64,000 bases of DNA, taken from NCBI GenBank assembly GCA_016927655.1, contig JAFGMG010000012.1, positions 42,618 through 106,617 of the forward strand, written 5' to 3'. The stretch comes from Candidatus Dojkabacteria bacterium (GTDB lineage: Bacteria; Patescibacteriota; Dojkabacteria; B142; JAFGMG01). The notes under the pieces were generated by a model. That model ran no database searches and had not been told where the DNA came from. It worked only from the letters and a program-made list of their open reading frames with translations. Below, in pieces: positions 17,060 to 62,682 of the stretch. Each line of letters begins with the position of its first letter. Position 1 is the first letter of the stretch. The translations under genes were made by a program, and so were the position numbers.

Positions 17060-18859
17060 TTATGTCAAATCTACCACCAGACCATCTGCAGCGTCTACCA
17101 GTTCTTTGCTTTTCATGATTATTGACTGGGTTTGGGTTCCGCAGTTGAATGCAGCTCGTTCCTGATCGAGTACATCATCGTCAAAATATGTATCAAGTCC
17201 CAGGATATTCCCAAATGGCGGGACACCTCCGACAACGAGCCCGAATCTGTCTTTTATCACCTGCGGATCTTCAAAGCTGTATCTCTGAGCGAGCAATATG
17301 GCCAGTTTCTTCATCTCAAGCTTTTTATTGCCCGGAAGGCAGACCATAATATTTTTCCCATCTTTTTCCCCTTTTAGAATTAGCGCTTTCACGCCCTCTT
17401 CAGGCATTGTACCTCGCACTCTCGCCGAATCTTCACTTGTCGGGGTTGGCTCGTGTTCCTGGTATTCGTATACAAAACCCCTCTTATCAAGGATGCTTTT
17501 AATCTTTGCAACAATATTTTCTTCACCTACTATAACCTCCTGCTTCAAGCCAATTGATGCAACTCTTTTTGTATCTGAAGGGAACAGAACTGCCTCACGA
17601 ATATTTTCAAGACCAAGCAACTGCATTGTAAATCTTTCCAATCCCAAACCAAATCCGCCATGTTTCGGCATTCCATATTTAAAAATTGATAGATAATCAG
17701 TGAAATCCGCAGGATCAAGCTCCTTCATCTTCAGGTTTTCAATCAGCTTCTCATAATTATCAATTCTCTGCCCGCCGCTGCTAACTTCAGCGCCATTGCA
17801 CAAAAGATCGCCATAATTGCAGACTTCTGGATTCTCATCATTTGGCATTGCATAGAATGCGCATTTCGATCTTGGAAACTGAGTCACAAAAACAAAGTCA
17901 ATTCCGTCTTTCTCTTTAACGTAATTACAAATAAATCTCTCGGCCTCCGGAGAAAGATCATTTTCATTACGTTCGTCCGTACCAGTTTCCTTGAAATAGA
18001 GCTCAAGTGCTTCTTTCAGAGTATATCTGGGAATTTTTACTTCGTCTTTAAGTACAGCAGAATTTTCGAACATTTTCAGTTCTTCTGCACATTCTTTCTG
18101 AACTTTTTTATAAATTTGCCTAATCACTTTTTCCTCCCATTCAAGAACATCTTCGAATTTTTCAATAAAGCCGATTTCAAACTCCAGCTGCGTTGCCTCT
18201 GTGATGTGCCTTCTCGTATTTGATTTCTCTGCCCGGAAGCATTTCAAAGTCCCAAAAACACGCTCATAAACTCCCACCATCATCTGTTTATAAAGCTGAT
18301 TTGACTGAGACAATTTCACATCGTGTCCAAAATAATTAACCGTAAAAAGCTCGGCACCACCTTCAGAAGAAGCATTTATAATTGCCGGCCCCATAAACTC
18401 AGTGAATCCATTTTCAATCAAAAACTCCCGATACGCTTCCAAAATTACCCCCTGGACTTTAAAAACCGCAGCAATTTTCTCATTTCGCAAAGTCAATGGT
18501 CTGTGATCTAGAATTGTATCCAGGCTTGCTCTGATTTCCGGCTTATTTACCTCGACAGGCCAAGGACTTGTAACGGGCACTTCAATATTTATCACCGGAT
18601 TGATAATCTCGGCAGCGGATTTGAATTGTGACGAAGCTTGTACATTTCCTTCAATCATTAACACACTTCCCGGCTGTAAATCCTTTACTTTTTCCAATTC
18701 CGCCTTGTCTTGTATTATCACCTGAGTAATCCCGCCTCGATCCCTGATGTGCATGAAATTCACTGCCCCTAGCATCCTTAATGAATGCATCCAGCCTCTA
18801 ATCAATACCTGTTCACCAATATGGGATTTCAATTCATTCGATAATACTCTTTCCATCAA
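17060..18859 (-). CDS. aspS: Aspartyl-tRNA synthetase (archaeal/class IIb type) with a fused C-terminal YbaK/ProX-like deacylase domain
   Basis: N-terminal OB fold. Flipping loop LSQSNQLYKQ, motif 2 FRAEKSNTRRHITEATQLEFE and motif 3 GGFGLGLERF. The last ~150 aa carry GLVVGGVPPFGN, matching the YbaK GYLVGGISPLG signature. Confidence 0.82.
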   Translation of the reverse strand: MMERVLSNELKSHIGEQVLIRGWMHSLRMLGAVNFMHIRDRGGITQVIIQDKAELEKVKDLQPGSVLMIEGNVQASSQFKSAAEIINPVINIEVPVTSPWPVEVNKPEIRASLDTILDHRPLTLRNEKIAAVFKVQGVILEAYREFLIENGFTEFMGPAIINASSEGGAELFTVNYFGHDVKLSQSNQLYKQMMVGVYERVFGTLKCFRAEKSNTRRHITEATQLEFEIGFIEKFEDVLEWEEKVIRQIYKKVQKECAEELKMFENSAVLKDEVKIPRYTLKEALELYFKETGTDERNENDLSPEAERFICNYVKEKDGIDFVFVTQFPRSKCAFYAMPNDENPEVCNYGDLLCNGAEVSSGGQRIDNYEKLIENLKMKELDPADFTDYLSIFKYGMPKHGGFGLGLERFTMQLLGLENIREAVLFPSDTKRVASIGLKQEVIVGEENIVAKIKSILDKRGFVYEYQEHEPTPTSEDSARVRGTMPEEGVKALILKGEKDGKNIMVCLPGNKKLEMKKLAILLAQRYSFEDPQVIKDRFGLVVGGVPPFGNILGLDTYFDDDVLDQERAAFNCGTQTQSIIMKSKELVDAADGLVVDLT

Positions 18860-36865: not shown

Positions 36866-37450
36866 ATGCTGGATTTCTCTGATTCATTCATTAGAAAATA
36901 TATCAATTTCCTGTCTTTATATATTTTCCTTGCTGGTAACATAATCCTTATACTGCTACTGCTGCCAGGAGATATTGACATCACAAAAGTGGAAATAAGC
37001 AAACTCGGAGTTTCAGAAAAGTACGGCACTATTTTCAATATGCTTTTTATGTTTTGCGGCCTGCTCGAAGTTGGGTTTGCATATTTGATTATCAAAAGAT
37101 TTAAATTCAACTTTTACGAGTCCCTATTTTTTCTCACACCCTGGGTACTGACTTTTGGTATTGGTTTTTTCAATCTTGATTCAAATGAAACGCTGCACAA
37201 ATTTTCCGCTTACTCATTTGCTATTACCTGGATATTCATGCAACTAGTCATGATTATCAAATTCTACTCAAAGCGATTCAAAAATATTACCTTAGCTACA
37301 ATATTCTTCCAGCTGCTAACAGGAGTGGTTTTTCTACTCTATTATGGAAAAATTAACGGCGTTTTTGAGATGACCTACATGACTTTTGTATATTTTTGGG
37401 CTTTCTATATGCTGATGACACTCAAGCGCAAATTATCCAACAAGGCTTGA
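36866..37450 (+). CDS. Multi-pass membrane protein (hypothetical)
   Basis: 194 aa with five or six hydrophobic helices. Confidence 0.45.
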   Translation: MLDFSDSFIRKYINFLSLYIFLAGNIILILLLLPGDIDITKVEISKLGVSEKYGTIFNMLFMFCGLLEVGFAYLIIKRFKFNFYESLFFLTPWVLTFGIGFFNLDSNETLHKFSAYSFAITWIFMQLVMIIKFYSKRFKNITLATIFFQLLTGVVFLLYYGKINGVFEMTYMTFVYFWAFYMLMTLKRKLSNKA

Positions 37451-39354: not shown

Positions 39355-41595
39355 CTAATATGTACAGCTTTCCTGACAGCCTTCAGTACAAGTCATCCCT
39401 GGAGGGCAGTAGAAATCACAATCATTAAAATCGCCGTTGTATTCATCACATTCACTTTCTTCAATTGAGAAACATTTGTTTTCAACAGCAACAAAAGAAC
39501 CCCCATAGTATCCACATATAACACCTGGGGCTGTGCTCCCTTCACCAGAAACACGAATGCTTAATTGACTTGTGCCCCCAGCACCATAGGATACAACCAG
39601 GAAAGTATTGTATGTCCGCACTGATGTGGGAATGAAACCAACTTCAACACTGCAACTTTCACCAGCAGCTATCGTCGGAGTACTACTTCCGCAAGGATTC
39701 GAAGCTCCTTCTGGATTTGTATCCAATGAGAAATTTGAGCTGTCAAGCAGGCTGATACCAGCTATTTCCATCTCCTGAGCAGTTTGATTGGTTATGGATA
39801 TTTCACGAGTGGCAGTTTGTCTTCCAGAAAGCAATGCAGAGAAATTCACAAGAGAGGAACTTGCCCTAACCTCTTCAGGTGAGGCTATACATTCGTACTT
39901 TTCATTGTAGGTTGATACGCCTGCATTGAAATCATTGCAGTCTTTATTATCTGGTATACCAGAAGGGCAAGTGACCGGCTTATTCAAGCTAAGACCCCAG
40001 TTATAATATCCGTCGCCGTCTCTATCCAGACAATCAATACTTCTCGAATTTGCATCAACAATTGGCAATATTAATCCATGCGTCCAGCCAAAGTTTGTGA
40101 TCGGAGTTTTCAAATTTACATATCCGTGATTTCCCCAGGTATTCCCCCAGCTGTTTTTGAATATCCAGACAGGTTCGTCATAAGAGTCAGTATACCAGCC
40201 GACAAGGACCATTGCGTGACTCCAGGAATAAATCCCTCCGCTAACCGGGCCCTGCTCAATTATCAGCTTTTTCAAGTTATCTTCTGTTTTATTTGTGAAA
40301 TCCACCCTTCCGCTGATTTTGATTCGCTCACTTGGGCTTGCACATTTTAAAGAACAAGAGAGATCTCTTGCTGAATATGAAAAGCAGGATTCATTTACTA
40401 CTCCATTGTTTTTAATATAATCCAACGTCAAGCTAGGCCATCCGCCGCTGCATGATCCGGCACCGCTGCAGGAAAGCATATCCTGTTCAGAAAGATCCAG
40501 ATTGACATGCTTATTGTAATAAAGATTAGCCAGAGATTCGGTTGCTCCAACCGCGGCAAACGCCCAGCAGGATCCGCAGCTCGCCTGGTTTTTGACCGCT
40601 GTTATCCATCCATTTCCGGTTTCATTTGAATCTGGATTGCCATCAAAATAAGGCGATGCAGGATTATTGGCCCCATGGACAGTTCTCCAGTCCCAGCTAG
40701 ATGCATAAATTGATGCTCCTTTTACATCACCGTTCATACTTCTTGTTGCCGATGCAAATAGGCCTAATACAGTTTCTGGCAGGTTCGTAATTATGCTTAC
40801 AAGCATAGGTCTTGTAGTAGGCGTTCGCCCACTTGATTCATCTACAACCACTTCCAGGACTCCTCCAACATAAAATTCTGCTCCTTGGAAATTCGGCAGC
40901 TCCTCGGAGTACAATTGAGATTTCTCTTCATAGCTGAGTTCGCCGAAAGCCGTTCTACCGGCCTGCCAGTCATATCCTTTTTCTTCAATCGAATCATTAA
41001 GCTCGGCAATTTTCTCATCAAGAACATCTTCTTTTTTCTGTTCGATTTGTGCCGCTTCAGCCGCAGTTGCCTCGCTCTGATTCATATTGACCTTTGTGAC
41101 TTCTAGACCAGCTCCGTTTTCTGTGTAGACTTCCAGGCTGGCTATTTTTGTTTCCCCAAGTAAACACGTTTCTTCACATTTTTCTTGGACACTGAACTCA
41201 CCCTGTCCATTTAGTAAATAATATGCTTCATAGACAAGATATTTCGTCCCATCATCTGAATAAAGAATTACTCTAGCTAAGCTGTCTTTATTTGGTAAAT
41301 TTACATCCGCATTGATTGTGAGGCCATATATTGTTGCGTCTTTTTCAATTTCGACATCCTGAGTATCACTTTCACTTGTAGGATCTTCTGTAGCAGCCGG
41401 GGTTCCTTCAGATAACTCAGCCTCAATTGATTCTTCTCCAACAGGGATGTCTTCTGGAGTTTGATCTGAATCTTTACCCGCATTGAATAGAAAATAAGCA
41501 AACAGTATTGCCAGTATCAGTAAAAGGTACAACTCCACTTCTAATCGGGGATTATTTTTGATTTCTTTTCTAAACTTTTGAAAGAAATTTGCCAT
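39355..41595 (-). CDS. Large membrane-anchored secreted protein with a papain-like C1 cysteine peptidase domain and Cys-rich C-terminal modules
   Basis: N-terminal TM. QASCGSCWAFAAVGATESL is the papain catalytic-Cys signature. Downstream His/Asn region; 746 aa; Cys-rich tail. Confidence 0.75.
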   Translation of the reverse strand: MANFFQKFRKEIKNNPRLEVELYLLLILAILFAYFLFNAGKDSDQTPEDIPVGEESIEAELSEGTPAATEDPTSESDTQDVEIEKDATIYGLTINADVNLPNKDSLARVILYSDDGTKYLVYEAYYLLNGQGEFSVQEKCEETCLLGETKIASLEVYTENGAGLEVTKVNMNQSEATAAEAAQIEQKKEDVLDEKIAELNDSIEEKGYDWQAGRTAFGELSYEEKSQLYSEELPNFQGAEFYVGGVLEVVVDESSGRTPTTRPMLVSIITNLPETVLGLFASATRSMNGDVKGASIYASSWDWRTVHGANNPASPYFDGNPDSNETGNGWITAVKNQASCGSCWAFAAVGATESLANLYYNKHVNLDLSEQDMLSCSGAGSCSGGWPSLTLDYIKNNGVVNESCFSYSARDLSCSLKCASPSERIKISGRVDFTNKTEDNLKKLIIEQGPVSGGIYSWSHAMVLVGWYTDSYDEPVWIFKNSWGNTWGNHGYVNLKTPITNFGWTHGLILPIVDANSRSIDCLDRDGDGYYNWGLSLNKPVTCPSGIPDNKDCNDFNAGVSTYNEKYECIASPEEVRASSSLVNFSALLSGRQTATREISITNQTAQEMEIAGISLLDSSNFSLDTNPEGASNPCGSSTPTIAAGESCSVEVGFIPTSVRTYNTFLVVSYGAGGTSQLSIRVSGEGSTAPGVICGYYGGSFVAVENKCFSIEESECDEYNGDFNDCDFYCPPGMTCTEGCQESCTY

Positions 41596-41660
41596 TGAGC
41601 GGAAAACTTGTTAGTTCTACTATACATATTTTTGAGGAAGGGGTAAAGGATTCGAAAAAG

Positions 41661-42004: not shown

Positions 42005-42712
42005 ATGCAGAGGAGCCTAGAAAAAACCAAGGACCTGGATCAAGACCTCATTACCTCCGAGCTTAGCTATCGCCGCCTGTTTGAAACCGCTCAAGATGGC
42101 ATACTTCTGGTCGATTTCAAAACTGGAATGATTCTTGATGCCAATCAATTCCTCATTGATATGCTCGGTTATTCCAAGGCCGATTTTCTAAAGAAGCACC
42201 TCTGGGAAATTGGAGCTTTTAAAGACATTGCCGCGTCAAAAGAAAATTTCTCCACATTAAGGGAAAAGAGATATGTACGCTTCGAAGATCTCCCCCTTGA
42301 AACAAAATCGGGCAAACACATTGATGTTGAGTTTGTAGCAAACGCCTACCAGGTCAATGACGCTACAATCATCCAATGCAATATCCGCGACATTACGGCT
42401 AGGAAAAAAATCGAAAAAACTCTTGAGGATAAAGAGGTTCTATACAGGCAGTTATTTGAAAACATGATTAGCGGAGTGGTTATCTATGAAACAAAGGATA
42501 AAGGCAAGACTTTTATAATAAAAGACTGCAATCATGCAACTGAAAAAATCGAGAAGGTAAAAAAGAATGAAATCATCGGCCGGAGTGTTGCCAAAGTATT
42601 TCCTGGGGTTAAAAATTTCGGGCTTTTCCGGGTTTTTCAAAGAGTATGGAAAACAGGAAAGGCTGAAAATTTCCCGATCTCTTTGTACAAAGACAATAGA
42701 ATTTCAGGATAG
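42005..42712 (+). CDS. PAS-domain protein; N-terminal part of a multi-PAS sensor histidine kinase, ending at an in-frame TAG
   Basis: Two PAS units. The stop at 42710-42712 is in the same frame as the downstream kinase ORF. Confidence 0.6.
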   Translation: MQRSLEKTKDLDQDLITSELSYRRLFETAQDGILLVDFKTGMILDANQFLIDMLGYSKADFLKKHLWEIGAFKDIAASKENFSTLREKRYVRFEDLPLETKSGKHIDVEFVANAYQVNDATIIQCNIRDITARKKIEKTLEDKEVLYRQLFENMISGVVIYETKDKGKTFIIKDCNHATEKIEKVKKNEIIGRSVAKVFPGVKNFGLFRVFQRVWKTGKAENFPISLYKDNRISG

Positions 42713-45415
42713 AGGAAGAATTTCGTTTATAAACTTCCCAATGGCAATCTTGTTGTAATTTACAGCGATATAACCGCCCAGAAAAAAGCAGAGAAAAAAA
42801 TAGAGCAGCTCTTAAAAACAACTACTGCAATTTATGAGACTTCCAGAATAATTTTTGAGAATTCGGATTCGGATAAATCTTTTAATAATTTGATTAAAAT
42901 CTTACCTAATTCATTTCAATTTCCAGAATTAATTTGTGTCAGAATTATTTACAACGGCAAAGAATACAAATCAGATAATTTCAAAGAAACGAAGCACAAA
43001 CTTATTCAGTATCTCAAAATCGATAGCCAAGAGCTGGGAGCTATAGAGGTATATTACCTAAAAAACAGAGGTTTCATTGATGAAGAAAAGGATATGATCA
43101 GCGAAGTTGGTTCTCAGATCGTGACTATCATCGAGCAAAAAAGAACACAGCAAAAACTAAAAGACAGCGAAGAAAAATATAGATTGTTATTTAACAACTC
43201 AAAAGATGCTTTGATGACGCTAGAGCCTCCTGATTGGAAATTTACTACCAGCAATCCCGCAATAAAAAAAATGTTTGGAATCAAAAGCGAAAAGGAATTT
43301 ACCTTCTTAAACCCATGGGAAATATCTCCAAAATACCAGCCTGATGGACAGCTCTCAAGTACAAAAGCCAAAAAGATGATTCAAAAAGCGCTTAAAGATG
43401 GCAGTAATTTTTTTGAATGGACTCATAAAAAGCTAGACGGAGAAAATTTCTATGCCACAGTATTACTAGTCAGAATATCATCCGGTAAAAAGAAGTTTCT
43501 TCAAGCCACGGTTCGAGATATTACTGAAGAAAAACACGCAAAATATTTAGCCAAAATTTCCGAACTTCGTTATCGTCGCCTATTCGAAACTGCCCAGGAC
43601 GGTATCCTAATACTGGATTATAAAACCGGAATGATTCTGGCCGCAAACAAGTTTCTCATGAATTTATTAGGTTATTCCAAAAAAGAGCTGCTGAAAAAAC
43701 ACTTCTGGGAGATAAGCTCATTTAAAGATATAGTGCCCTCGAAGAAAAAATTTGCGTCTATACGTAAGAAAAAGTCACTTCATTTTGAAGACCTCCCTCT
43801 TGAAACAAAAAGTGGGAAAAAGGTTGAAGTAGAGTTTGTCTCCACTATGTATCTTGTTGGAGAATCGAAAAGAATACATTGCAACATTCGAGATATTACT
43901 GCTAGAAGGAAGAGTGAGCGCGAAGCTCAAAAATTACTGCGCTTGAGTGAAGAAAAATTTTCCAAAGCCTTTCATACCTCACCATACGTCATGACAATTA
44001 CCGAGATGAAAACCGGCAAATTTATCGAGATTAATGAGGAGTTTACGAAATTAACAGGTTACAGCAGGGAAGAAACTCTTGCCAATTCGTCAATAGGACT
44101 TGGCGTGTGGAGCGACAAGGAAGATCGGGAGCTGATTGCAGCGAAACTTCTTGCAGGTCTGCCTGTTAATAACCAAGAATGCCAATTCAAAACTAAAAGC
44201 GGGGAGGAGAGAACCGGCTTGTACTCTGCTCAATTGATTGAACTTAACCAGGGATTATGCATTTTATCAAGTGTTACTGATATTACAGAACGCGAAAAGA
44301 CGCAGCGGTTAATTCACGATATTAAAAACAGAGACGAAGCACTGCTAGAATCAATAGGTGATGCCGTCTTTGCTACCGATGTTTCGGGGAAAATCCTGCT
44401 TTTTAACAAAATGGCTGAAAAAATGACCGGGAAATCTGCCACAGAGGTAATTGGTAAGCATTATAAAGAGGCAGTAACTTTTATCAGTGAAGATACCGGG
44501 AAACCTCACGAAGATTTTATCGTCAGTGCGGTGGATGAGGATAAAATAACGAAAATGGGCAGCCATGTAGAATTGATCCGCAAAGATGGTGTCAAAATAC
44601 CGGTAGCTGACTCGGCTGCTCCGATCAAAGACATGGAAGGTAAAATTATTGGCTGCGTCGTGGTTTTTCATGACGTGACTCAAGAACGCCTTGTGGATAG
44701 AGCCAAAACAGAATTTGTCTCACTTGCTTCACACCAGCTGCGAACCCCCTTATCTACAATCAACTGGTATGTGGAAATGCTTTTATCGCTGGATGTCGGG
44801 AATCTAACTCCGAAACAAAAACAATATAGTGAGCAGATCAGCAAAGCCAGCAGAAGAATGGTAGATCTGGTAAATGCTCTTTTAAATGTTTCCAGGCTGG
44901 AACTTGGAACATTTATGATCGAACCGAAACGAGTCAATATCAAAAAGACCGCGCAAGGATGCCTCAATGAGCTCAAGTCGAAGATTGTAAAGAAAAAGTT
45001 GAACGTTAGGCAGAGCTACAAAGGAGTTTCTTACATAAAAGCCGATCCTCAGCTCCTGACGATTATTTTCCAGAACCTTCTTTCAAATGCAATTAAATAT
45101 TCGAATAATAACGGGCGCGTCGGCCTAACAGTCAAAAAAGAAAAAAGTGGTATTTTGATAAAGATATCCGACGCTGGTATCGGAATACCCAAGCATCAGC
45201 AAAAGGGAATTTTCCAGAAACTCTTCCGAGCAGACAATGCAAAAACTCTTGACCCGGATGGCACTGGACTGGGATTGTATATTGTCAAACAAATTACTGA
45301 CTATACAGGAGGAGAGGTCTGGTTTAGATCTATTGAAAATAAGGGGACAACTTTTTATATAAGACTGCCTCTATCTGGGATGACAAAGAAGGTTGGCAGT
45401 AAATCACTAACTTAA
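42713..45415 (+). CDS. Multi-PAS sensor histidine kinase (HisKA + HATPase_c), continuous in frame with 42005..42712; the true start is unclear (track start 42890 is a TTG)
   Basis: Several PAS units, H-box SHQLRTPLSTI, and N/G boxes (NLLSNAIKYS, DAGIGIP, GTGLGLYIV). There is no stop between 42713 and 42890 in this frame. Confidence 0.7.
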   Translation, partial: RKNFVYKLPNGNLVVIYSDITAQKKAEKKIEQLLKTTTAIYETSRIIFENSDSDKSFNNLIKILPNSFQFPELICVRIIYNGKEYKSDNFKETKHKLIQYLKIDSQELGAIEVYYLKNRGFIDEEKDMISEVGSQIVTIIEQKRTQQKLKDSEEKYRLLFNNSKDALMTLEPPDWKFTTSNPAIKKMFGIKSEKEFTFLNPWEISPKYQPDGQLSSTKAKKMIQKALKDGSNFFEWTHKKLDGENFYATVLLVRISSGKKKFLQATVRDITEEKHAKYLAKISELRYRRLFETAQDGILILDYKTGMILAANKFLMNLLGYSKKELLKKHFWEISSFKDIVPSKKKFASIRKKKSLHFEDLPLETKSGKKVEVEFVSTMYLVGESKRIHCNIRDITARRKSEREAQKLLRLSEEKFSKAFHTSPYVMTITEMKTGKFIEINEEFTKLTGYSREETLANSSIGLGVWSDKEDRELIAAKLLAGLPVNNQECQFKTKSGEERTGLYSAQLIELNQGLCILSSVTDITEREKTQRLIHDIKNRDEALLESIGDAVFATDVSGKILLFNKMAEKMTGKSATEVIGKHYKEAVTFISEDTGKPHEDFIVSAVDEDKITKMGSHVELIRKDGVKIPVADSAAPIKDMEGKIIGCVVVFHDVTQERLVDRAKTEFVSLASHQLRTPLSTINWYVEMLLSLDVGNLTPKQKQYSEQISKASRRMVDLVNALLNVSRLELGTFMIEPKRVNIKKTAQGCLNELKSKIVKKKLNVRQSYKGVSYIKADPQLLTIIFQNLLSNAIKYSNNNGRVGLTVKKEKSGILIKISDAGIGIPKHQQKGIFQKLFRADNAKTLDPDGTGLGLYIVKQITDYTGGEVWFRSIENKGTTFYIRLPLSGMTKKVGSKSLT

Positions 45416-52036: not shown

Positions 52037-52690
52037 ATGAAGAGGCTGGTCCTTCTGAGAAAATTTCAAAAGAATTTTGTACGCCTTGCTTTGAGTTTAC
52101 TTGTCGCGGGCATATTTTTTTCAGCATTTATGCTACTACGCAGCCCATTGCAGGATGTATTAGAACCAGACAGACAGGAAATGAATTTTGATTATGAAAT
52201 TATCCAGAATAATGCCGGCAGTGTTCAGGGAGTCAGCACCAAAATTTCCTCATTGAAAGTTGAGACGCTGGATTCAAGAGGCTGGGTATTCGACCAGTAT
52301 TTGAAAAATAACGATTCTCCTCTAGCAGGCCATGGCGAGGATTTTGTAAATGCCTGTGATAAATTCAACACCCCGCACGACTGCACACTTTTAATCGCAA
52401 TTGCAAAGGTCGAGACGAATCTCTGCAAGACGGGGATTTCATCTAAACAGTATAACTGCTGGGGCTATGGCGGATCGGGAGAAAACAGAATCATATACAC
52501 GAGCTTTGAACAGGCGATTGACGATATCACGGGCAGACTGATGAATGGCTACAGAGCCAGGTTTTTCGAAGATCCGGAAGCAGGAGAACTTTTTTACTGC
52601 GGCGCACACTGTAATAGCTGGGGCGATAAAGTCAAAGATGTGCAAAATGAGCTAAAGGCATATGCGAAAGAACTGGGATATGAGCTTTAA
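52037..52690 (+). CDS. Membrane-anchored secreted protein, possibly glucosaminidase-like (weak)
   Basis: LLIAIAKVETNL...NCWGYGG faintly resembles the glucosaminidase AQAILESGWG...NLFGI region. Confidence 0.4.
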   Translation: MKRLVLLRKFQKNFVRLALSLLVAGIFFSAFMLLRSPLQDVLEPDRQEMNFDYEIIQNNAGSVQGVSTKISSLKVETLDSRGWVFDQYLKNNDSPLAGHGEDFVNACDKFNTPHDCTLLIAIAKVETNLCKTGISSKQYNCWGYGGSGENRIIYTSFEQAIDDITGRLMNGYRARFFEDPEAGELFYCGAHCNSWGDKVKDVQNELKAYAKELGYEL

Positions 52691-54996
52691 TCTTCAAACG
52701 TCTGATCAAACTGCCTGTCTTCCTGACCGATGAATTTCGGAATTGTAGCTGTAAATGTCGAGCCTTTACCAATTTCACTCTTCACATCAATTTTTCCATT
52801 CATAAGTTTCATCAGGTTAAAAGCAACATAAAGTCCAAGACCTGTTCCTCCAGGCCTTACCACACCATTTCCATCCGCACCCTTTGAAGTTGGAATATGC
52901 TGTTTTGCTCTAAAAAACTTCTTGCCAAGGTATTTCATATCTTCTTTAGCTATTCCAATTCCTTCATCTGTAACAGTAAATAGCACGTTCTTGTCGTTCT
53001 CCGTAATTTCAACTGTGACCTCGCCTTCTAAAGTATATTTGATTGCATTACTGACAAGATTATCTATTACTTCCTGGAATCTTGTTTTGTCTGCATAAAT
53101 CAAAGTTTCCTTCTTTGGTTTGGTGTAGACAATTTTGACATCTTTTTCTTTTGCAAAGTGCTCGTGTGCTTCTATTGCATTCTCAACTACCTGATTGGCA
53201 TCAAGCTGAGTAAGAAGCAGCTGGATTCTATTTGATTCGACTTTAGTTGCAGAAAGCAGAGTCTCTACAAGGTCAAGCTCTCTTTTTGCTCCCTCTGAGG
53301 CTTTTTCAATATAATTTGCAAGCTCACTTTCTGTAATTTTTTCTTTCTTTTTAATCTTTGATTGCAGAATCATCAGGGAATTTCTGACTATTGTAATTGG
53401 TGTTCGAAGCTCGTGACCCATGACATCGATCATATCTCTTTCCTGCCTGCGGACTTCTTCGAGCTTATCTAAAGTATCTTCAAGATCTTTATTTTTCTGT
53501 GAAATTTCTTCTGTTGCCTCATCGATACGCTTTTGAAGATTTTTATTGAGATCTTCGACTTCGAGGTAATAAAGTGAACGTGTAATTGCAAGGCCTAGTG
53601 TTGTGGCTATCCCATCGAGATATCCAACATCCTGATTTGTATATGGGCTGTCGGCTTCTTTTTCACCGATTAGCAGCATTGCGAAATTTTCTTCACTTTG
53701 CTTAAGAGGCATAATAATTTTGAGTTTGCTGCTAGCCATGCTTTTCATCACAGCTTCAATTTCGCTTTCAAGTCCCCGGAAATGCCTCGGTATTTCGAGT
53801 TCAAGTTCGTCGTAAACAATTGGGAATTTGCCTGCTTTATCCCATATGGCTTTGAGTTTTTCGAGACTTTCCATTTTAACTTCTTTTTTGTCCCCAAGTT
53901 CTTGTAGGTATTTTTTCTCTGCTGACTTCTCGAAGTCCTCGCCAGGAATAACAAGCACTGCCTGGTATTTAGCGCGTATTGTTCTACTGAGAGTTTCTAG
54001 AGTTGACTGTGAAATATCTCTAATACTCAAGTGTGTAGCGATTTTTCTTGAAAGCTGGTCTGTTTCTTCAAGCGGATCGTAGCCTGGATTGATGATTCTG
54101 GTACGAACCTGCTTTCGCAGGAAATTATTCAACCAAACAAACACCATTGCAAAGATAATCGCATTTGGAATACCAGATAAAACACCCCCCGTTGTCTCAC
54201 TCCCGCCAAAAGAAATAATATCAAAGAAGTAGATGGTGAAATAAGTCAGATAAAACAAAGAGCCAATAAGGGCATAGTAAACAATGCGGCCGACGAGGAT
54301 ACGAACGTCGAGGAATTGATAGCGTAAAATTGCATAAGTCACAGATAAGGTGAAGAATGTTGTACCAAGGGGTCCATAATGTTGAAGTAAAAAATTGCCG
54401 AAAAGATAAGGTAGAAATAGATTTGTGGAGATAGCAAAAATACTTGAGAGAACTATTCCTATTGTTATTATCGTAATTTGTCGTTTAGAAATTTTTTCAC
54501 TTCTTCTTCTCTTGATTAATAAAATTATTACACTAACTAGCATGGAACCTGCAAAATGGAGAATAAATAGAGGATATAAAATGCCATATATTGTATTATA
54601 CTCACCGTTTAAATATTCTTCTTTCTCATCAATGTATGGAGAAAATATAGTTATGTACACTAAGAATAACGTTAGTGCCGTGTATACAATCTTTATGAAA
54701 TGCTTCTTAATCAGACTATTCCCTTCTGGAAATTCGTTCGTAAAAAAGAGAACAAAATACCCTAAACTGGTTGTAGCTACAAAGTTTATCCTACCCCAAA
54801 ATAGAAATGCTGCTTCGCTTCTATATAAACTTAAATATAGTTCCAATGAAAATATCCAGCCAACAAGTGAACAGACCAGAAAGAAGAATAATTGATTAAG
54901 TCTTTTCCCGGGTTTATAACCTAAAATCAATAATCCTAAAATACTATTCAGTGAAATACTGATTATTGTTATCAACTCGGTTAACTGCATATTCAA
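52687..54996 (-). CDS. Polytopic membrane sensor histidine kinase
   Basis: About 9 TM helices. H-box GHELRTPITIV and HATPase N/G boxes (NLVSNAIKYT, DEGIGI, GTGLGLYVA). Confidence 0.8.
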   Translation of the reverse strand: MNMQLTELITIISISLNSILGLLILGYKPGKRLNQLFFFLVCSLVGWIFSLELYLSLYRSEAAFLFWGRINFVATTSLGYFVLFFTNEFPEGNSLIKKHFIKIVYTALTLFLVYITIFSPYIDEKEEYLNGEYNTIYGILYPLFILHFAGSMLVSVIILLIKRRRSEKISKRQITIITIGIVLSSIFAISTNLFLPYLFGNFLLQHYGPLGTTFFTLSVTYAILRYQFLDVRILVGRIVYYALIGSLFYLTYFTIYFFDIISFGGSETTGGVLSGIPNAIIFAMVFVWLNNFLRKQVRTRIINPGYDPLEETDQLSRKIATHLSIRDISQSTLETLSRTIRAKYQAVLVIPGEDFEKSAEKKYLQELGDKKEVKMESLEKLKAIWDKAGKFPIVYDELELEIPRHFRGLESEIEAVMKSMASSKLKIIMPLKQSEENFAMLLIGEKEADSPYTNQDVGYLDGIATTLGLAITRSLYYLEVEDLNKNLQKRIDEATEEISQKNKDLEDTLDKLEEVRRQERDMIDVMGHELRTPITIVRNSLMILQSKIKKKEKITESELANYIEKASEGAKRELDLVETLLSATKVESNRIQLLLTQLDANQVVENAIEAHEHFAKEKDVKIVYTKPKKETLIYADKTRFQEVIDNLVSNAIKYTLEGEVTVEITENDKNVLFTVTDEGIGIAKEDMKYLGKKFFRAKQHIPTSKGADGNGVVRPGGTGLGLYVAFNLMKLMNGKIDVKSEIGKGSTFTATIPKFIGQEDRQFDQTFED

Positions 54997-58267: not shown

Positions 58268-59056
58268 TCAGCTGATCAACCTCCTGACAACCTGTAAGAA
58301 TTTACTATTTGGTATATATTCTATTGACTCAAAACGCGGATAATTCCATAAAGGTTCTCTATAAAGACTCATCTTTATATTAAAACACTCAACCCTCAAT
58401 CCTATTTCTCTTGATTCAAGAGAATTAAAATTATATTGGTTGTTATCTACCTCATCCCATATATTCTTAATATCTGGATATTTCTCAACTACTTTCTCAT
58501 TCCTCCTATACCAAGTATCATCTCGCATAAATTCCATTTGTTTTTTAACTCTGCCAAGTTGATAGTAAAGCATTTCCATATATTTATCTGTTTGAAGATA
58601 TTTCTTGATCATATAGCTATCATCTACTAGCAAAGCCACAACTGAATCCCCTAGAATTTTCGAAACTGTCTCACGATACTTGTCTCCTAATAGCCTTTTA
58701 AAAATTTTCTCAAAACCTTTCGAAAAATACAGCATCCTGAACCTATCATCAAGCATATATGCATATACATTATTATTTGTATAATGATTTCTTAAAACTT
58801 CGATTGCTTTTTGTACTTCATCGTCTGACGCAGGTTCTGCTATCGTTCCAATAAGATAGTCAACTTCCCTGTCATTTAATAATAATATCTTACCAATATA
58901 TAAGACAGTCTCCTTACTCGGATTGACCTTGCCGCTCTCTATTCTCGAAATCATGCCTACAGAAGCGTTCATGGCCAGCTCGAGGTCCATCTGGCTCATT
59001 CCAGCTCTTTTTCTGAAGTATTTAATTCTTCGGCCCAATGTCTTTGCGTCAATCAT
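58268..59056 (-). CDS. XRE-family HTH regulator with ~200-aa C-terminal domain (Rgg/RNPP-like architecture), copy 2
   Basis: N-terminus MIDAKTLGRRIKYFRKRAGMSQMDLELAMNASVGMISRIESGKVNPS. Confidence 0.6.
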   Translation of the reverse strand: MIDAKTLGRRIKYFRKRAGMSQMDLELAMNASVGMISRIESGKVNPSKETVLYIGKILLLNDREVDYLIGTIAEPASDDEVQKAIEVLRNHYTNNNVYAYMLDDRFRMLYFSKGFEKIFKRLLGDKYRETVSKILGDSVVALLVDDSYMIKKYLQTDKYMEMLYYQLGRVKKQMEFMRDDTWYRRNEKVVEKYPDIKNIWDEVDNNQYNFNSLESREIGLRVECFNIKMSLYREPLWNYPRFESIEYIPNSKFLQVVRRLIS

Positions 59057-59838
59057 TTCCTGCCCTTTAAAAGGTTTTGAACCGTTCTGAAATATTTATT
59101 CACGGGAATATATTCAACAATTTCGAATCTTGGATTATCAAGCAGTCTCTCCCTGGCATACATCATTTTAAATTTCACTGGCCCGACTTTAAATGGAACA
59201 ATTCTCTCATCTTTCTCGTAAAACACTCCCAATTTTTCAGTATCCAGACTATTCCAGTACTCAAATATCTTCGGATGTTTCTCTATTTCTTCTATACTGA
59301 CCTGATATATCTTATCATCCTTCATAAAACTAATCTCTCTTTTACAATAGGCAAGCTGAATGCGAACCATTTCGTCATAAGCACTTTCATCGAACAATCC
59401 CTTTACACCAAGACGTTCATCTAGAAGAATCTGAATAATAGTTTTGCCAAATACTCCATCAATGGTTTTTTGATCAGCATTCAATATTTTTTGGAATCCT
59501 TTTGATACATGAAGGATTCTCCATCTTTCGTCAGTTAGATAACCAAATACAGAGCTTTTATCGAGATAGTATTTGAGCTGCTGATAAACTTCTTCGATCT
59601 CTTCTTTAGTTGAAGGGACAGCTGTTACACCGATTAAATAGTCTAATTCGTTGGGATTCATATTCAGTATCTCTGCAACTTTTCTCACGCTCTCCTTGCT
59701 CGGATTGACCTTGCCGCTCTCTATTCTCGAAATCATGCCTGCGGAGGCATTCATTGCCAGCTCGAGTTCCATCTGGCTCATTCCAGCTCTTTTTCTGAAG
59801 TATTTAATTCTTCTGCCCAATGTCTTTGCGTCAATCAT
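59053..59838 (-). CDS. XRE-family HTH regulator, tandem paralog (copy 1), translationally coupled (ATGA) to copy 2
   Basis: The N-terminal 50 aa are near-identical to copy 2. The stop overlaps the downstream start. Confidence 0.6.
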   Translation of the reverse strand: MIDAKTLGRRIKYFRKRAGMSQMELELAMNASAGMISRIESGKVNPSKESVRKVAEILNMNPNELDYLIGVTAVPSTKEEIEEVYQQLKYYLDKSSVFGYLTDERWRILHVSKGFQKILNADQKTIDGVFGKTIIQILLDERLGVKGLFDESAYDEMVRIQLAYCKREISFMKDDKIYQVSIEEIEKHPKIFEYWNSLDTEKLGVFYEKDERIVPFKVGPVKFKMMYARERLLDNPRFEIVEYIPVNKYFRTVQNLLKGRK

Positions 59839-61197: not shown

Positions 61198-62682
61198 ATG
61201 AAAAAGAAACTAATATTATTAATACTAGGCATACCCGTCATTGTTATCGGTGGATTTGTCTTTAAAAGCATAGTTTTGGCAAAAGGGGATGATACAATCA
61301 TAATAAAAGAGAACTTAGTAGCAGACGGTGAATTTGTCCGTGGTCCAAATGTGGAAAATTTTGGAGTTGAGAAATACATCAATAAAAAACTAAAAAAATA
61401 CTCTTCTTTCCAAAAGGAAATTGATGATCAGTCTGAAATGTATAGTATCAACCCTGAGTTATTGATAACACTAATAGACATTCAATATCAAAATGTGGAC
61501 TTAACAGATATGAAGCCTGAAGAGTTTAACGATTTGATCGAAAAATTGGTGATTGATCTTACGGATAACTACTATGGCTGCATTGCCCAAGCAGTAGAAA
61601 GAGCAGATAATAAACTAGAGAAAGAATATGAATCCCCTTTTGGATACAGAGTCAAACTAGACGATGAAGTAAATGCAGCCACTAATGCAACAATATTTGC
61701 AATGATTCAAAGAATGGATAAACAGGATATGAAAAATTTTGCAAGGAACGGAGATAACGGAGATTTTCATAAACACTTTTCAAAACTATTTCCAGAATCG
61801 GATCCACTAGATGGAAGTAATGTGATTGACTATGAAATAGTAAGTGGGAAAAAGAAACCTGAGAAATTTTCTTTATCAAACAGCATTGTTCAGAAGGCTC
61901 AAGCCCAATCAACTCCATTTAAAGAAACCCTGCAATTTCCTTATCCAATAGGGCAGTCTTGGGTATTTAATGGCGTACATTCTACTAATATGTCCGGAAT
62001 AGACTTTTCTCCAACAAATCCTTTTCCAAGCTGGCTTCAACCAGAAAATGATATCACAGCAACTGATTATCGGGTTGTTGCAGCCGCAGATGGTATAGCA
62101 CAAAAATATTCTAATTGCCTTGTTTATATTGATCACGGTGGAGGGTGGAAGACTAAATATTACCATCTCGAAAATGTACAATTCAGTCAAAACACCTCTG
62201 TTGAAGCAAATGATACGATTGCATACTTGGCTAACACCTACTCTGAAGCTATTTGCAATACCGGAGATGCTACTGGTAGACATGTTCATTTTGGATTGAT
62301 GTATAATGGAGCTTATACTGCTCTTGATGGATCGGAATTTTCCGGATGGAAGGTAAACGTAAATACGACAACACCTTATTCTATCGATTGCACAAAAATG
62401 TATCTTTATAGAGACGGAGTAACCAAGTGTCCACGCAGTAGTATTTTAAATGACGCATCGACAGATTCATGTATTCCTTCTCCAGGACTCGATTGGGTTA
62501 TTGACGGACAGGTATGTGAGATTACTTCCAATATGGTGGCTGATAGAAATGTGTTGGTGAAGAATAACTCTGAATTAAGACTTTTAGCTAATTCTAGTCT
62601 TAACATTGATTTCCTGAACTATTCTATACAAACAGAACCCTATGGTAAAATAACCATAGATTCGACTGCTAAGCTATTTTAA
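61198..62682 (+). CDS. Membrane-anchored secreted M23-family (LytM-like) metallopeptidase
   Basis: YIDHGGGWKTKYYHL (HxxxD region) and GDATGRHVHFGL (HxH) motifs. Confidence 0.68.
   Translation: MKKKLILLILGIPVIVIGGFVFKSIVLAKGDDTIIIKENLVADGEFVRGPNVENFGVEKYINKKLKKYSSFQKEIDDQSEMYSINPELLITLIDIQYQNVDLTDMKPEEFNDLIEKLVIDLTDNYYGCIAQAVERADNKLEKEYESPFGYRVKLDDEVNAATNATIFAMIQRMDKQDMKNFARNGDNGDFHKHFSKLFPESDPLDGSNVIDYEIVSGKKKPEKFSLSNSIVQKAQAQSTPFKETLQFPYPIGQSWVFNGVHSTNMSGIDFSPTNPFPSWLQPENDITATDYRVVAAADGIAQKYSNCLVYIDHGGGWKTKYYHLENVQFSQNTSVEANDTIAYLANTYSEAICNTGDATGRHVHFGLMYNGAYTALDGSEFSGWKVNVNTTTPYSIDCTKMYLYRDGVTKCPRSSILNDASTDSCIPSPGLDWVIDGQVCEITSNMVADRNVLVKNNSELRLLANSSLNIDFLNYSIQTEPYGKITIDSTAKLF

Follow-up and report, generated by a model that had tools for sequence, protein, structure and literature searches.

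The 64,000-nucleotide window analysed here (the whole 64-kb stretch, taken from contig JAFGMG010000012.1 of a Candidatus Dojkabacteria bacterium) encodes on its minus strand, at 39355..41595, a 746-amino-acid (aa) protein that is, by its sequence, a genuine cysteine protease of the papain family (subfamily C1A) with a complete conserved catalytic set. We consider it likely, with a probability of roughly 0.7, that this protein is an exported endopeptidase made as a membrane-tethered zymogen. The open reading frame of the original prediction was confirmed on the minus strand with its ATG start, which is the first possible one: the stop-to-stop frame opens just 15 nt upstream, so that no earlier start is available. 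An identical protein is held by NCBI as 'hypothetical protein JW978_04065 [Candidatus Dojkabacteria bacterium]', and two orthologues from metagenome-assembled genomes of Patescibacteria/Dojkabacteria bear the name 'C1 family peptidase' in databases. The protease is a real feature in a lineage-specific arrangement, and an already annotated kind of enzyme. The boundaries of its parts, given below, were drawn from an AlphaFold2 model built on a 69-sequence alignment (predicted local distance difference test score, pLDDT, 86.6; predicted template modelling score 0.74) together with composition and conservation.

39355..41595, minus strand: protease precursor coding sequence, 746 aa plus stop, ATG start, uninterrupted.
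41479..41595, minus strand: basic tail, aa 1-20 (5 K/R), and putative hydrophobic signal-anchor helix, aa 21-39.
41371..41478, minus strand: acidic stalk, predicted to be disordered, aa 40-75 (pLDDT<50 at 41-54 and 60-73).
41080..41370, minus strand: predicted N-terminal jelly-roll beta-sandwich, aa 76-172, with a near-invariant CEETC loop.
40846..41079, minus strand: propeptide-like segment, aa 173-250 (helix 181-206, W210-x-AG-x-T215-x-F..LSYxEK, PNxQGxEYYxGGxFE).
40708..40845, minus strand: putative pro/mature junction, aa 251-296, of variable length, pLDDT<50 at 260-289, ending before SWDWR.
40051..40707, minus strand: papain-fold catalytic domain, aa 297-515 (Gln337, Cys343, His460, Asn481, Trp483).
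39880..40050, minus strand: DxDxDG/Cys module, aa 516-572 (C522-x-D524-x-D526-x-D528-G..W533-G534..C543-P..D552-C553-x-D555..C569).
39532..39879, minus strand: candidate Ig-like beta-sandwich of the choice-of-anchor D (NCBIfam NF012200) / ASH / PapD-like type, aa 573-688.
39358..39531, minus strand: 8-Cys module, aa 689-746 (C-x13-C-x7-C-x9-C-x3-C-x5-C-x3-C-x3-C-x-Y-COOH).

The C1 active site claimed in the original prediction was borne out in full. PF00112 (Peptidase_C1) matched aa 328-498 with E=9.7e-38 (130.9 bits against a cut-off of 20.7), the active-site motif QASCGSCWAFAAVGATESL occupying aa 337-355. Far from being confined to this Cys motif, the match covers profile positions 11-205, or 195 of the 220, and aligns both His460 and Asn481. 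A phmmer search of the PDB likewise matched 168 solved C1A chains, with ginger protease II at the top (7e-23), and its alignments placed SHAMVLVGW and IFKNSWG opposite the catalytic His and Asn of the solved enzymes. Equivalents of the papain Cys25/His159 dyad, of Gln19 in the oxyanion hole and of Asn175 are thus all present, and in the alignment of 69 homologues they are conserved almost without exception (Cys343 68/69, His460 69/69, Gln337 68/69, Asn481 67/69). The predicted structure has the two-lobed papain fold of subfamily C1A; Cys340/Cys382 and Cys376/Cys414 occupy the positions of the papain disulfides C22-C63 and C56-C95, whereas the third papain disulfide is missing and, unlike the cathepsin and papain proenzymes, the domain carries a 20-aa insert after WDWR. 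Membership of C1B (bleomycin hydrolase/PepC, PF03051) was rejected, as no full-length profile match was obtained. Catalytic activity, along with the cleavage site, Ca2+ binding and disulfides discussed below, is predicted from sequence.

The reading as a zymogen came from the structural comparison. When the model was compared with solved structures using Foldseek, the top matches were proenzymes, not mature enzymes (procathepsins L2/L3, K, S and H, pro-Amb a 11, probromelain and pro-triticain), and the alignments, which span 355-382 columns, cover the entire zymogens of ~310 residues. In the predicted fold an N-terminal helical segment is packed on the catalytic domain, as in the procathepsins, and two residues of the PNxQGxEYYxGGxFE stretch that follows the helix, Y242 and G245, are invariant. 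The enzyme therefore looks like one made as a zymogen, its putative pro-region lying between the anchor and the catalytic domain. Sequence comparison of the pro-like segment was less telling. The 746-aa protein had no I29 match in Pfam; a profile of aa 176-252 recovered no propeptide from the PDB, its matches being at chance level; and against the Pfam propeptides one of the 24 members of this segment touched PF08127 (E=0.012), with no match otherwise. Identification as an I29 propeptide by sequence was dropped in view of these chance-level profile matches, and we suggest that the segment may work like a propeptide, making no claim to I29 membership.

The presumed site of activation cleavage lies within aa 251-296. 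This junction includes an insert of ~30 aa in the Dojkabacteria-type clade that is gapped in Bacteroidota, Desulfonema and the other non-CPR homologues compared (CPR, candidate phyla radiation), and it runs up to SWDWR, a sequence resembling what we take to be the mature N-terminal motif of papain-like enzymes (VDWR in papain and cathepsin L). Within it, aa 264-283 are moderately hydrophobic and possibly amphipathic (Kyte-Doolittle value 1.43, pLDDT<50) and vary in sequence across the clade.

At the N-terminus, aa 21-39 form the sole strong hydrophobic segment of the protein (Kyte-Doolittle 19-residue maximum 2.27), within a helix that AlphaFold2 places at aa 16-38, and 17 acidic residues (D/E) follow within aa 40-86. 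Such a hydrophobic segment (19-residue values 2.3-3.6) was found in 11 of the 12 close relatives, the query included, P0011 being without its N-terminus; it is usually preceded by a basic n-region of 20-30 aa, shorter in P0003 and P0012. An AxA-type cleavage site is absent after the segment in all 11, and the query has F-N-A-G ahead of the charged stretch. We infer that the segment is an uncleaved signal-anchor of N-in/C-out topology. The alternative, that it is a cleavable Sec signal peptide and that neither the precursor nor the mature form of a fully secreted enzyme is ever membrane-bound, draws on the fact that the non-CPR homologues all start with classical signal peptides and that the family is clearly secretory; given the basic n-regions, the missing AxA-like sites and the F-N-A-G of the query, we hold it to be unlikely. 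In a signal-anchored protein of this kind the anchor precedes the pro-region, so that a cut at the junction would separate the mature enzyme from its membrane anchor. The description of the protease as membrane-anchored, which the segment at aa 21-39 upholds in part, thus probably applies to the precursor only, and if the mature enzyme is retained at all, this would be through its C-terminal modules or by staying non-covalently associated with the pro-part.

Taken as a whole, the proposed mechanism would run as follows. The basic tail and the 19-residue hydrophobic helix would direct Sec insertion of a type-II anchored precursor, whose acidic, disordered stalk would carry the ectodomain away from the membrane. 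The beta-domain and the helical segment (together aa 76-250) would form a pro-region that imposes latency, with the helical part placed, to judge from the fold, as I29 is in the procathepsins. A cut in aa 251-296, just before SWDWR, would then yield an active papain-type endopeptidase and, in the same stroke, detach the catalytic, DxDxDG, Ig-like and 8-Cys parts from the anchor. The DxDxDG/Cys module, stabilised by Ca2+ and disulfides, would buttress the catalytic domain, while binding through the Ig-like and 8-Cys modules would keep the enzyme on a surface or on a substrate. The most likely role of such an enzyme would be the degradation of extracellular protein, supplying peptides to an organism of limited biosynthesis. 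This last suggestion fits the likely role of the homologues, which are secreted (in Bacteroidota as cargo of the type IX secretion system, T9SS, type), and the limited biosynthetic capacity that is generally reported for CPR bacteria; many of the non-CPR homologues, besides their signal peptides, carry PKD and PF18962 domains in precomputed Pfam annotation. Three points weigh against this scheme. The choice between an anchor and a cleaved signal peptide is based on hydropathy and on missing AxA motifs; the pro-like segment has no significant similarity to I29, to Propeptide_C1 or to solved propeptides, so that its putative inhibitory role rests on the predicted fold; and the proposed physiological role is derived from the family and from general CPR biology rather than from the Dojkabacteria genome itself.

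Ahead of the pro-like segment the protease has a jelly-roll domain that the cathepsin L/K/S and plant papain proenzymes (C1A plus I29) do not possess. They differ from it further in the I29 signature, which is undetectable in the protease, and in having no counterpart of its DxDxDG module, Ig domain, 8-Cys tail and membrane anchor. The CEETC loop of the jelly-roll is conserved across phyla (C140 67/69, E142 69/69, C144 62/69), which points to a functional site, possibly one of contact with the catalytic domain, a metal or the substrate. A beta-domain in this position brings to mind cathepsin C (dipeptidyl peptidase 1, DPP1; PDB 3pdf): excision of the helical pro-piece might leave the beta-domain in place, narrowing the cleft so that the enzyme acts as an exopeptidase or with restricted specificity, and the CEETC loop, with its E142, would then touch either the catalytic domain or the substrate. 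We regard this as quite doubtful. The protease shows no specific sequence affinity to cathepsin C, its beta-domain is not detectably homologous to the exclusion domain of DPP1, and there is no evidence in it for either the tetramer or the exopeptidase activity of that enzyme.

The distribution of these parts separates a widespread core from lineage-specific additions. The protein search gave 711 matches at E<=1e-3 among 8000 candidates scored. Eleven of them are full-length relatives with 45-50% identity, 88-100% coverage and the same architecture, tail included; in a quick neighbour-joining tree of the core the 12 close relatives form one clade, to which P0018, with the same Ig domain and tail, is sister. 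The other homologues come from Bacteroidota, Desulfobacteraceae/Desulfonema, Gammaproteobacteria, Beggiatoa and unnamed metagenomic sources, and a scan of genome contigs, which says little about distribution, returned two weak non-CPR loci only. These non-CPR homologues share aa ~87-565 at 36-45% identity, that is, the beta-domain, pro-like segment, catalytic domain and DxDxDG module, and carry PKD, PF18962, leucine-rich repeat, dockerin, FG-GAP or other domains in place of the Ig domain and tail. Bacteroidota PKD/T9SS proteins such as P0055 and Desulfonema ishimotonii DENIS_4289 (P0026) are true homologues over this region, CEETC included, yet they differ in their cleavable signal peptides, shorter pro/mature junction and downstream domains. 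By sequence, only the anchor, the Ig domain and the Cys tail are lineage-specific, the clade concerned being the Dojkabacteria-type one with P0018 as its sister. The view that a papain-like protease is unusual in such a genome finds little support: a core common to so many non-CPR bacteria makes it an overstatement, and a 2023 survey placed the papain family in all major bacterial phyla, with candidate phyla in the same table (PMC10380794). The survey noted numerous multidomain prokaryotic C1A proteins and left them unanalysed, Cwp84 being the only one among them with a structure (PMC10380794).

C-terminal to the catalytic domain, the Cys-rich modules that had been predicted were confirmed: of the 23 Cys of the protein, 8 fall in the last 58 aa and 4 in aa 516-572, with 2 more in the Ig-like domain. 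The DxDxDG/Cys module is kept in every homologue, with D524, D526, D528, D552 and D555 each present in 69/69, and is modelled at a pLDDT of ~90-95. It probably binds Ca2+ and is stabilised by disulfides, to judge from its residues. Weak matches to this module were an EF-hand_5 hit in one orthologue (E=0.0097) and a pairwise resemblance to the region beside the MopE motif in P0042 (E=0.049); MopE/PF11617 identity is not claimed, as the PF11617 match of P0042 lies downstream of the homologous module.

The 8-Cys module is the most novel part of the protease and belongs to an un-named family. The 12 close relatives have all eight Cys without exception. When a profile built from their tails was run against 1.84 billion cluster representatives in a search that uses no word index, it recovered 142 of these at E<=1e-3 (5 at <=1e-10), all sharing the framework C-x13-C-x7-C-x9-C-x3-C-x(5-8)-C-x3-C-x3-C, with the typical consensus C..GG.W..E..ECEGIS...C...GG.F.EC.SACR(N/H)DP.AE.CT.QCV.VC.F. 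The module matched nothing in Pfam, NCBIfam or the PDB. The 142 proteins have a median length of 180 aa, and in 101 of them no more than 5 aa separate the module from the C-terminus; up to three tandem copies occur. Partners of the module include lipobox-type signal peptides, Kazal inhibitors (P0126, P0133, P0134), a serpin (P0203) and DUF333 (P0124, P0131), and two copies are inserted in a ZnuA protein (P0147). The protease tails are a divergent subgroup, having a shorter C5-C6 spacing and lacking the CR(N/H)D motif.

Among 30 of these clusters looked up, the five that are organism-named are all archaeal (Nanobdellota, Woesearchaeota, Nanoarchaeota and Nitrosopumilaceae). Two long contigs carrying 8-Cys genes (loci L006 and L010; family proteins P0123-P0262) were inspected in addition; one of them has the archaeal markers S6e, PCNA and a RadA-type recombinase, and the other has aEF-1beta, thermosome and S-layer proteins, which are also archaeal. 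On this basis the family is provisionally taken to be mainly archaeal. A second recurring Cys motif, F(E/D)xC(V/A)xAGNP(V/I)(M/L)ESYP(R/E/G)xCxxxGxxFVE, often stands ahead of the module in the archaeal proteins (P0123-P0138), the two forming a bipartite repeat (for example P0123 aa 45-75, 145-180 and 258-290); the protease does not have this second motif.

A plant C1A enzyme of the RD21/triticain type (granulin tail) offers a likeness in layout, a papain-type zymogen followed by a small Cys-rich C-terminal domain, and the triticain-alpha proenzyme 8zlq was among the Foldseek matches. The protease framework, however, has no CC pairs and matches the un-named, mainly archaeal family. Granulin identity was rejected on the Cys pattern, the 8-Cys framework not being what we take to be that of granulin. 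One possible function of the 8-Cys module is binding by a disulfide-rich fold; another, hinted at by the insertion into ZnuA, is that of a metal site. In the protease it follows the 'choice-of-anchor' domain, where other bacteria have a C-terminal sorting or anchoring signal. It is tempting, if on balance unlikely, to see the tail as a diverged member of an extracellular 8-Cys family not described before, one that usually closes small lipoproteins or secreted proteins. Its function would be retention at the surface or the binding of a target (possibly of a metal), it may have passed between archaea and CPR bacteria, and it would keep the released protease attached to the cell or to a partner cell.

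These same modules underlie the proposal that the protease is a weapon or adhesin of an episymbiont, acting on surface proteins of a host cell that its Ig-like and 8-Cys modules would bind. In its favour, the organism belongs to the Dojkabacteria (formerly WS6; under the bacterial candidate phyla in the NCBI taxonomy), a CPR lineage; the Ig domain, 8-Cys tail and anchor are specific to the Dojkabacteria-type clade, with P0018 as its only sister; and the named 8-Cys proteins are mostly from DPANN archaea, another ultra-small lineage. On the other side, no direct evidence links the protease to a host; Nitrosopumilaceae, ammonia-oxidising archaea with a free-living way of life, have the 8-Cys module as well; and in its catalytic core the protease is like the ordinary proteases that bacteria secrete. 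The interaction with host surfaces or host proteins envisaged in the original prediction found no support, there being neither a host-related domain nor a neighbourhood conserved at two orthologous loci. A host-directed function, which would be compatible with the zymogen model, strikes us as improbable.

A parallel is offered by Cwp84 of Clostridioides difficile (PDB 4ci7), a C1A zymogen found at the cell surface. Besides its propeptide, Cwp84 has a Ca2+-binding beta-sandwich and repeats that bind the wall, and it is this enzyme that cleaves the precursor of the S-layer (PMC4089489). What the predicted architecture of the Dojkabacteria protein has in common with it is a C1A zymogen at the bacterial surface in which a cleavable propeptide is combined with an accessory beta-sandwich and with attachment modules at the C-terminus (PMC4089489). 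The protease could by analogy be a dedicated maturase of the envelope proteins of its own cell rather than a nutritional enzyme, being likewise a predicted C1A zymogen with a beta-sandwich and putative binding modules and a single-copy gene in the window, where no paralogue of any of its modules was found elsewhere in the 64 kb; we give this idea little credence. That the protein might be a catalytically dead adhesin is scarcely credible: none of the four catalytic residues is missing, and they are conserved among the 69 homologues, whereas binding-type domains are the only point in its favour.

If the model of a tethered zymogen holds, it would describe how an auxotrophic ultra-small bacterium may acquire peptides, by way of a latent, pro-region-tethered protease that is released or activated by one cut. 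Beyond this, the analysis defines the conserved core of a large bacterial protease family (CEETC jelly-roll, pro-like segment, C1A domain and DxDxDG module) that was left unanalysed in PMC10380794. The 8-Cys module, linking a CPR protease with archaeal Kazal and serpin proteins, is a small advance in cataloguing that may point to shared surface binding. None of these findings overturns current understanding.

The protease gene is a stand-alone gene. It lies 65 nt downstream of a tRNA-Lys on the same strand, is convergent with a gene for a GT4 glycosyltransferase, and is flanked by this gene, an HD-domain protein, the tRNA-Lys and PAS histidine kinases; the remainder of the window is housekeeping in character, with a dcw-type cluster, aminoacyl-tRNA synthetases, glycolysis genes, LepA, three tRNAs and sensor kinases. 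No neighbours are shared at the two orthologous loci, whose flanking genes are unrelated, and any operon or neighbourhood logic was ruled out on these grounds. The GC content of the region shows no anomaly, and together with the single clade that the 12 close relatives form, next to P0018, in the quick neighbour-joining tree it gives no sign of recent horizontal transfer. One further feature lies between the tRNA-Lys and the start codon:

41619..41647, minus strand: promoter-like site TTTACC-17-TATAGT, a weak consensus match (9/12).

Promoter-like sites in this region are no more numerous than in shuffled sequence. At 36866-37450 (plus strand), ~2 kb away from the protease, lies the gene for a multi-pass membrane protein of 194 aa that has no Pfam match, and at the locus of the P0012 orthologue a 201-aa DUF998 membrane protein (L004 2581-3186) stands ~3 kb upstream, which may be a case of weak synteny.

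A few other genes in the window merit mention. Upstream of an 841-aa multi-PAS histidine kinase with a TTG start (42890-45415, plus strand), and separated from it by 177 nt, lies the gene for a 235-aa PAS protein (42005-42712, plus strand), whose PAS module is, by eye, closely similar to an internal one of the kinase; the pair may have arisen by a recent duplication or may be a single kinase gene interrupted by a stop or frameshift. With a seven-transmembrane-type histidine kinase at 52687-54996 (minus strand), several sensor kinases fall inside 13 kb. At 17060-18859 (minus strand) a 599-aa class-II tRNA synthetase of the Asp/Asn/Lys type (tRNA-synt_2 plus OB anticodon domain) has a C-terminal YbaK-type aminoacyl-tRNA editing domain (PF04073, E=1.2e-24), a fusion that looks uncommon. 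Two adjacent, overlapping paralogues of ~260 aa (58268-59056 and 59053-59838, both minus strand) each have an N-terminal HTH_3/HTH_31 domain, the remaining ~190 aa of both giving no family match. Finally, a 494-aa protein with a Peptidase_M23 domain (E=4.2e-12) at 61198-62682 (plus strand) is potentially another extracellular, wall-active hydrolase of the window.

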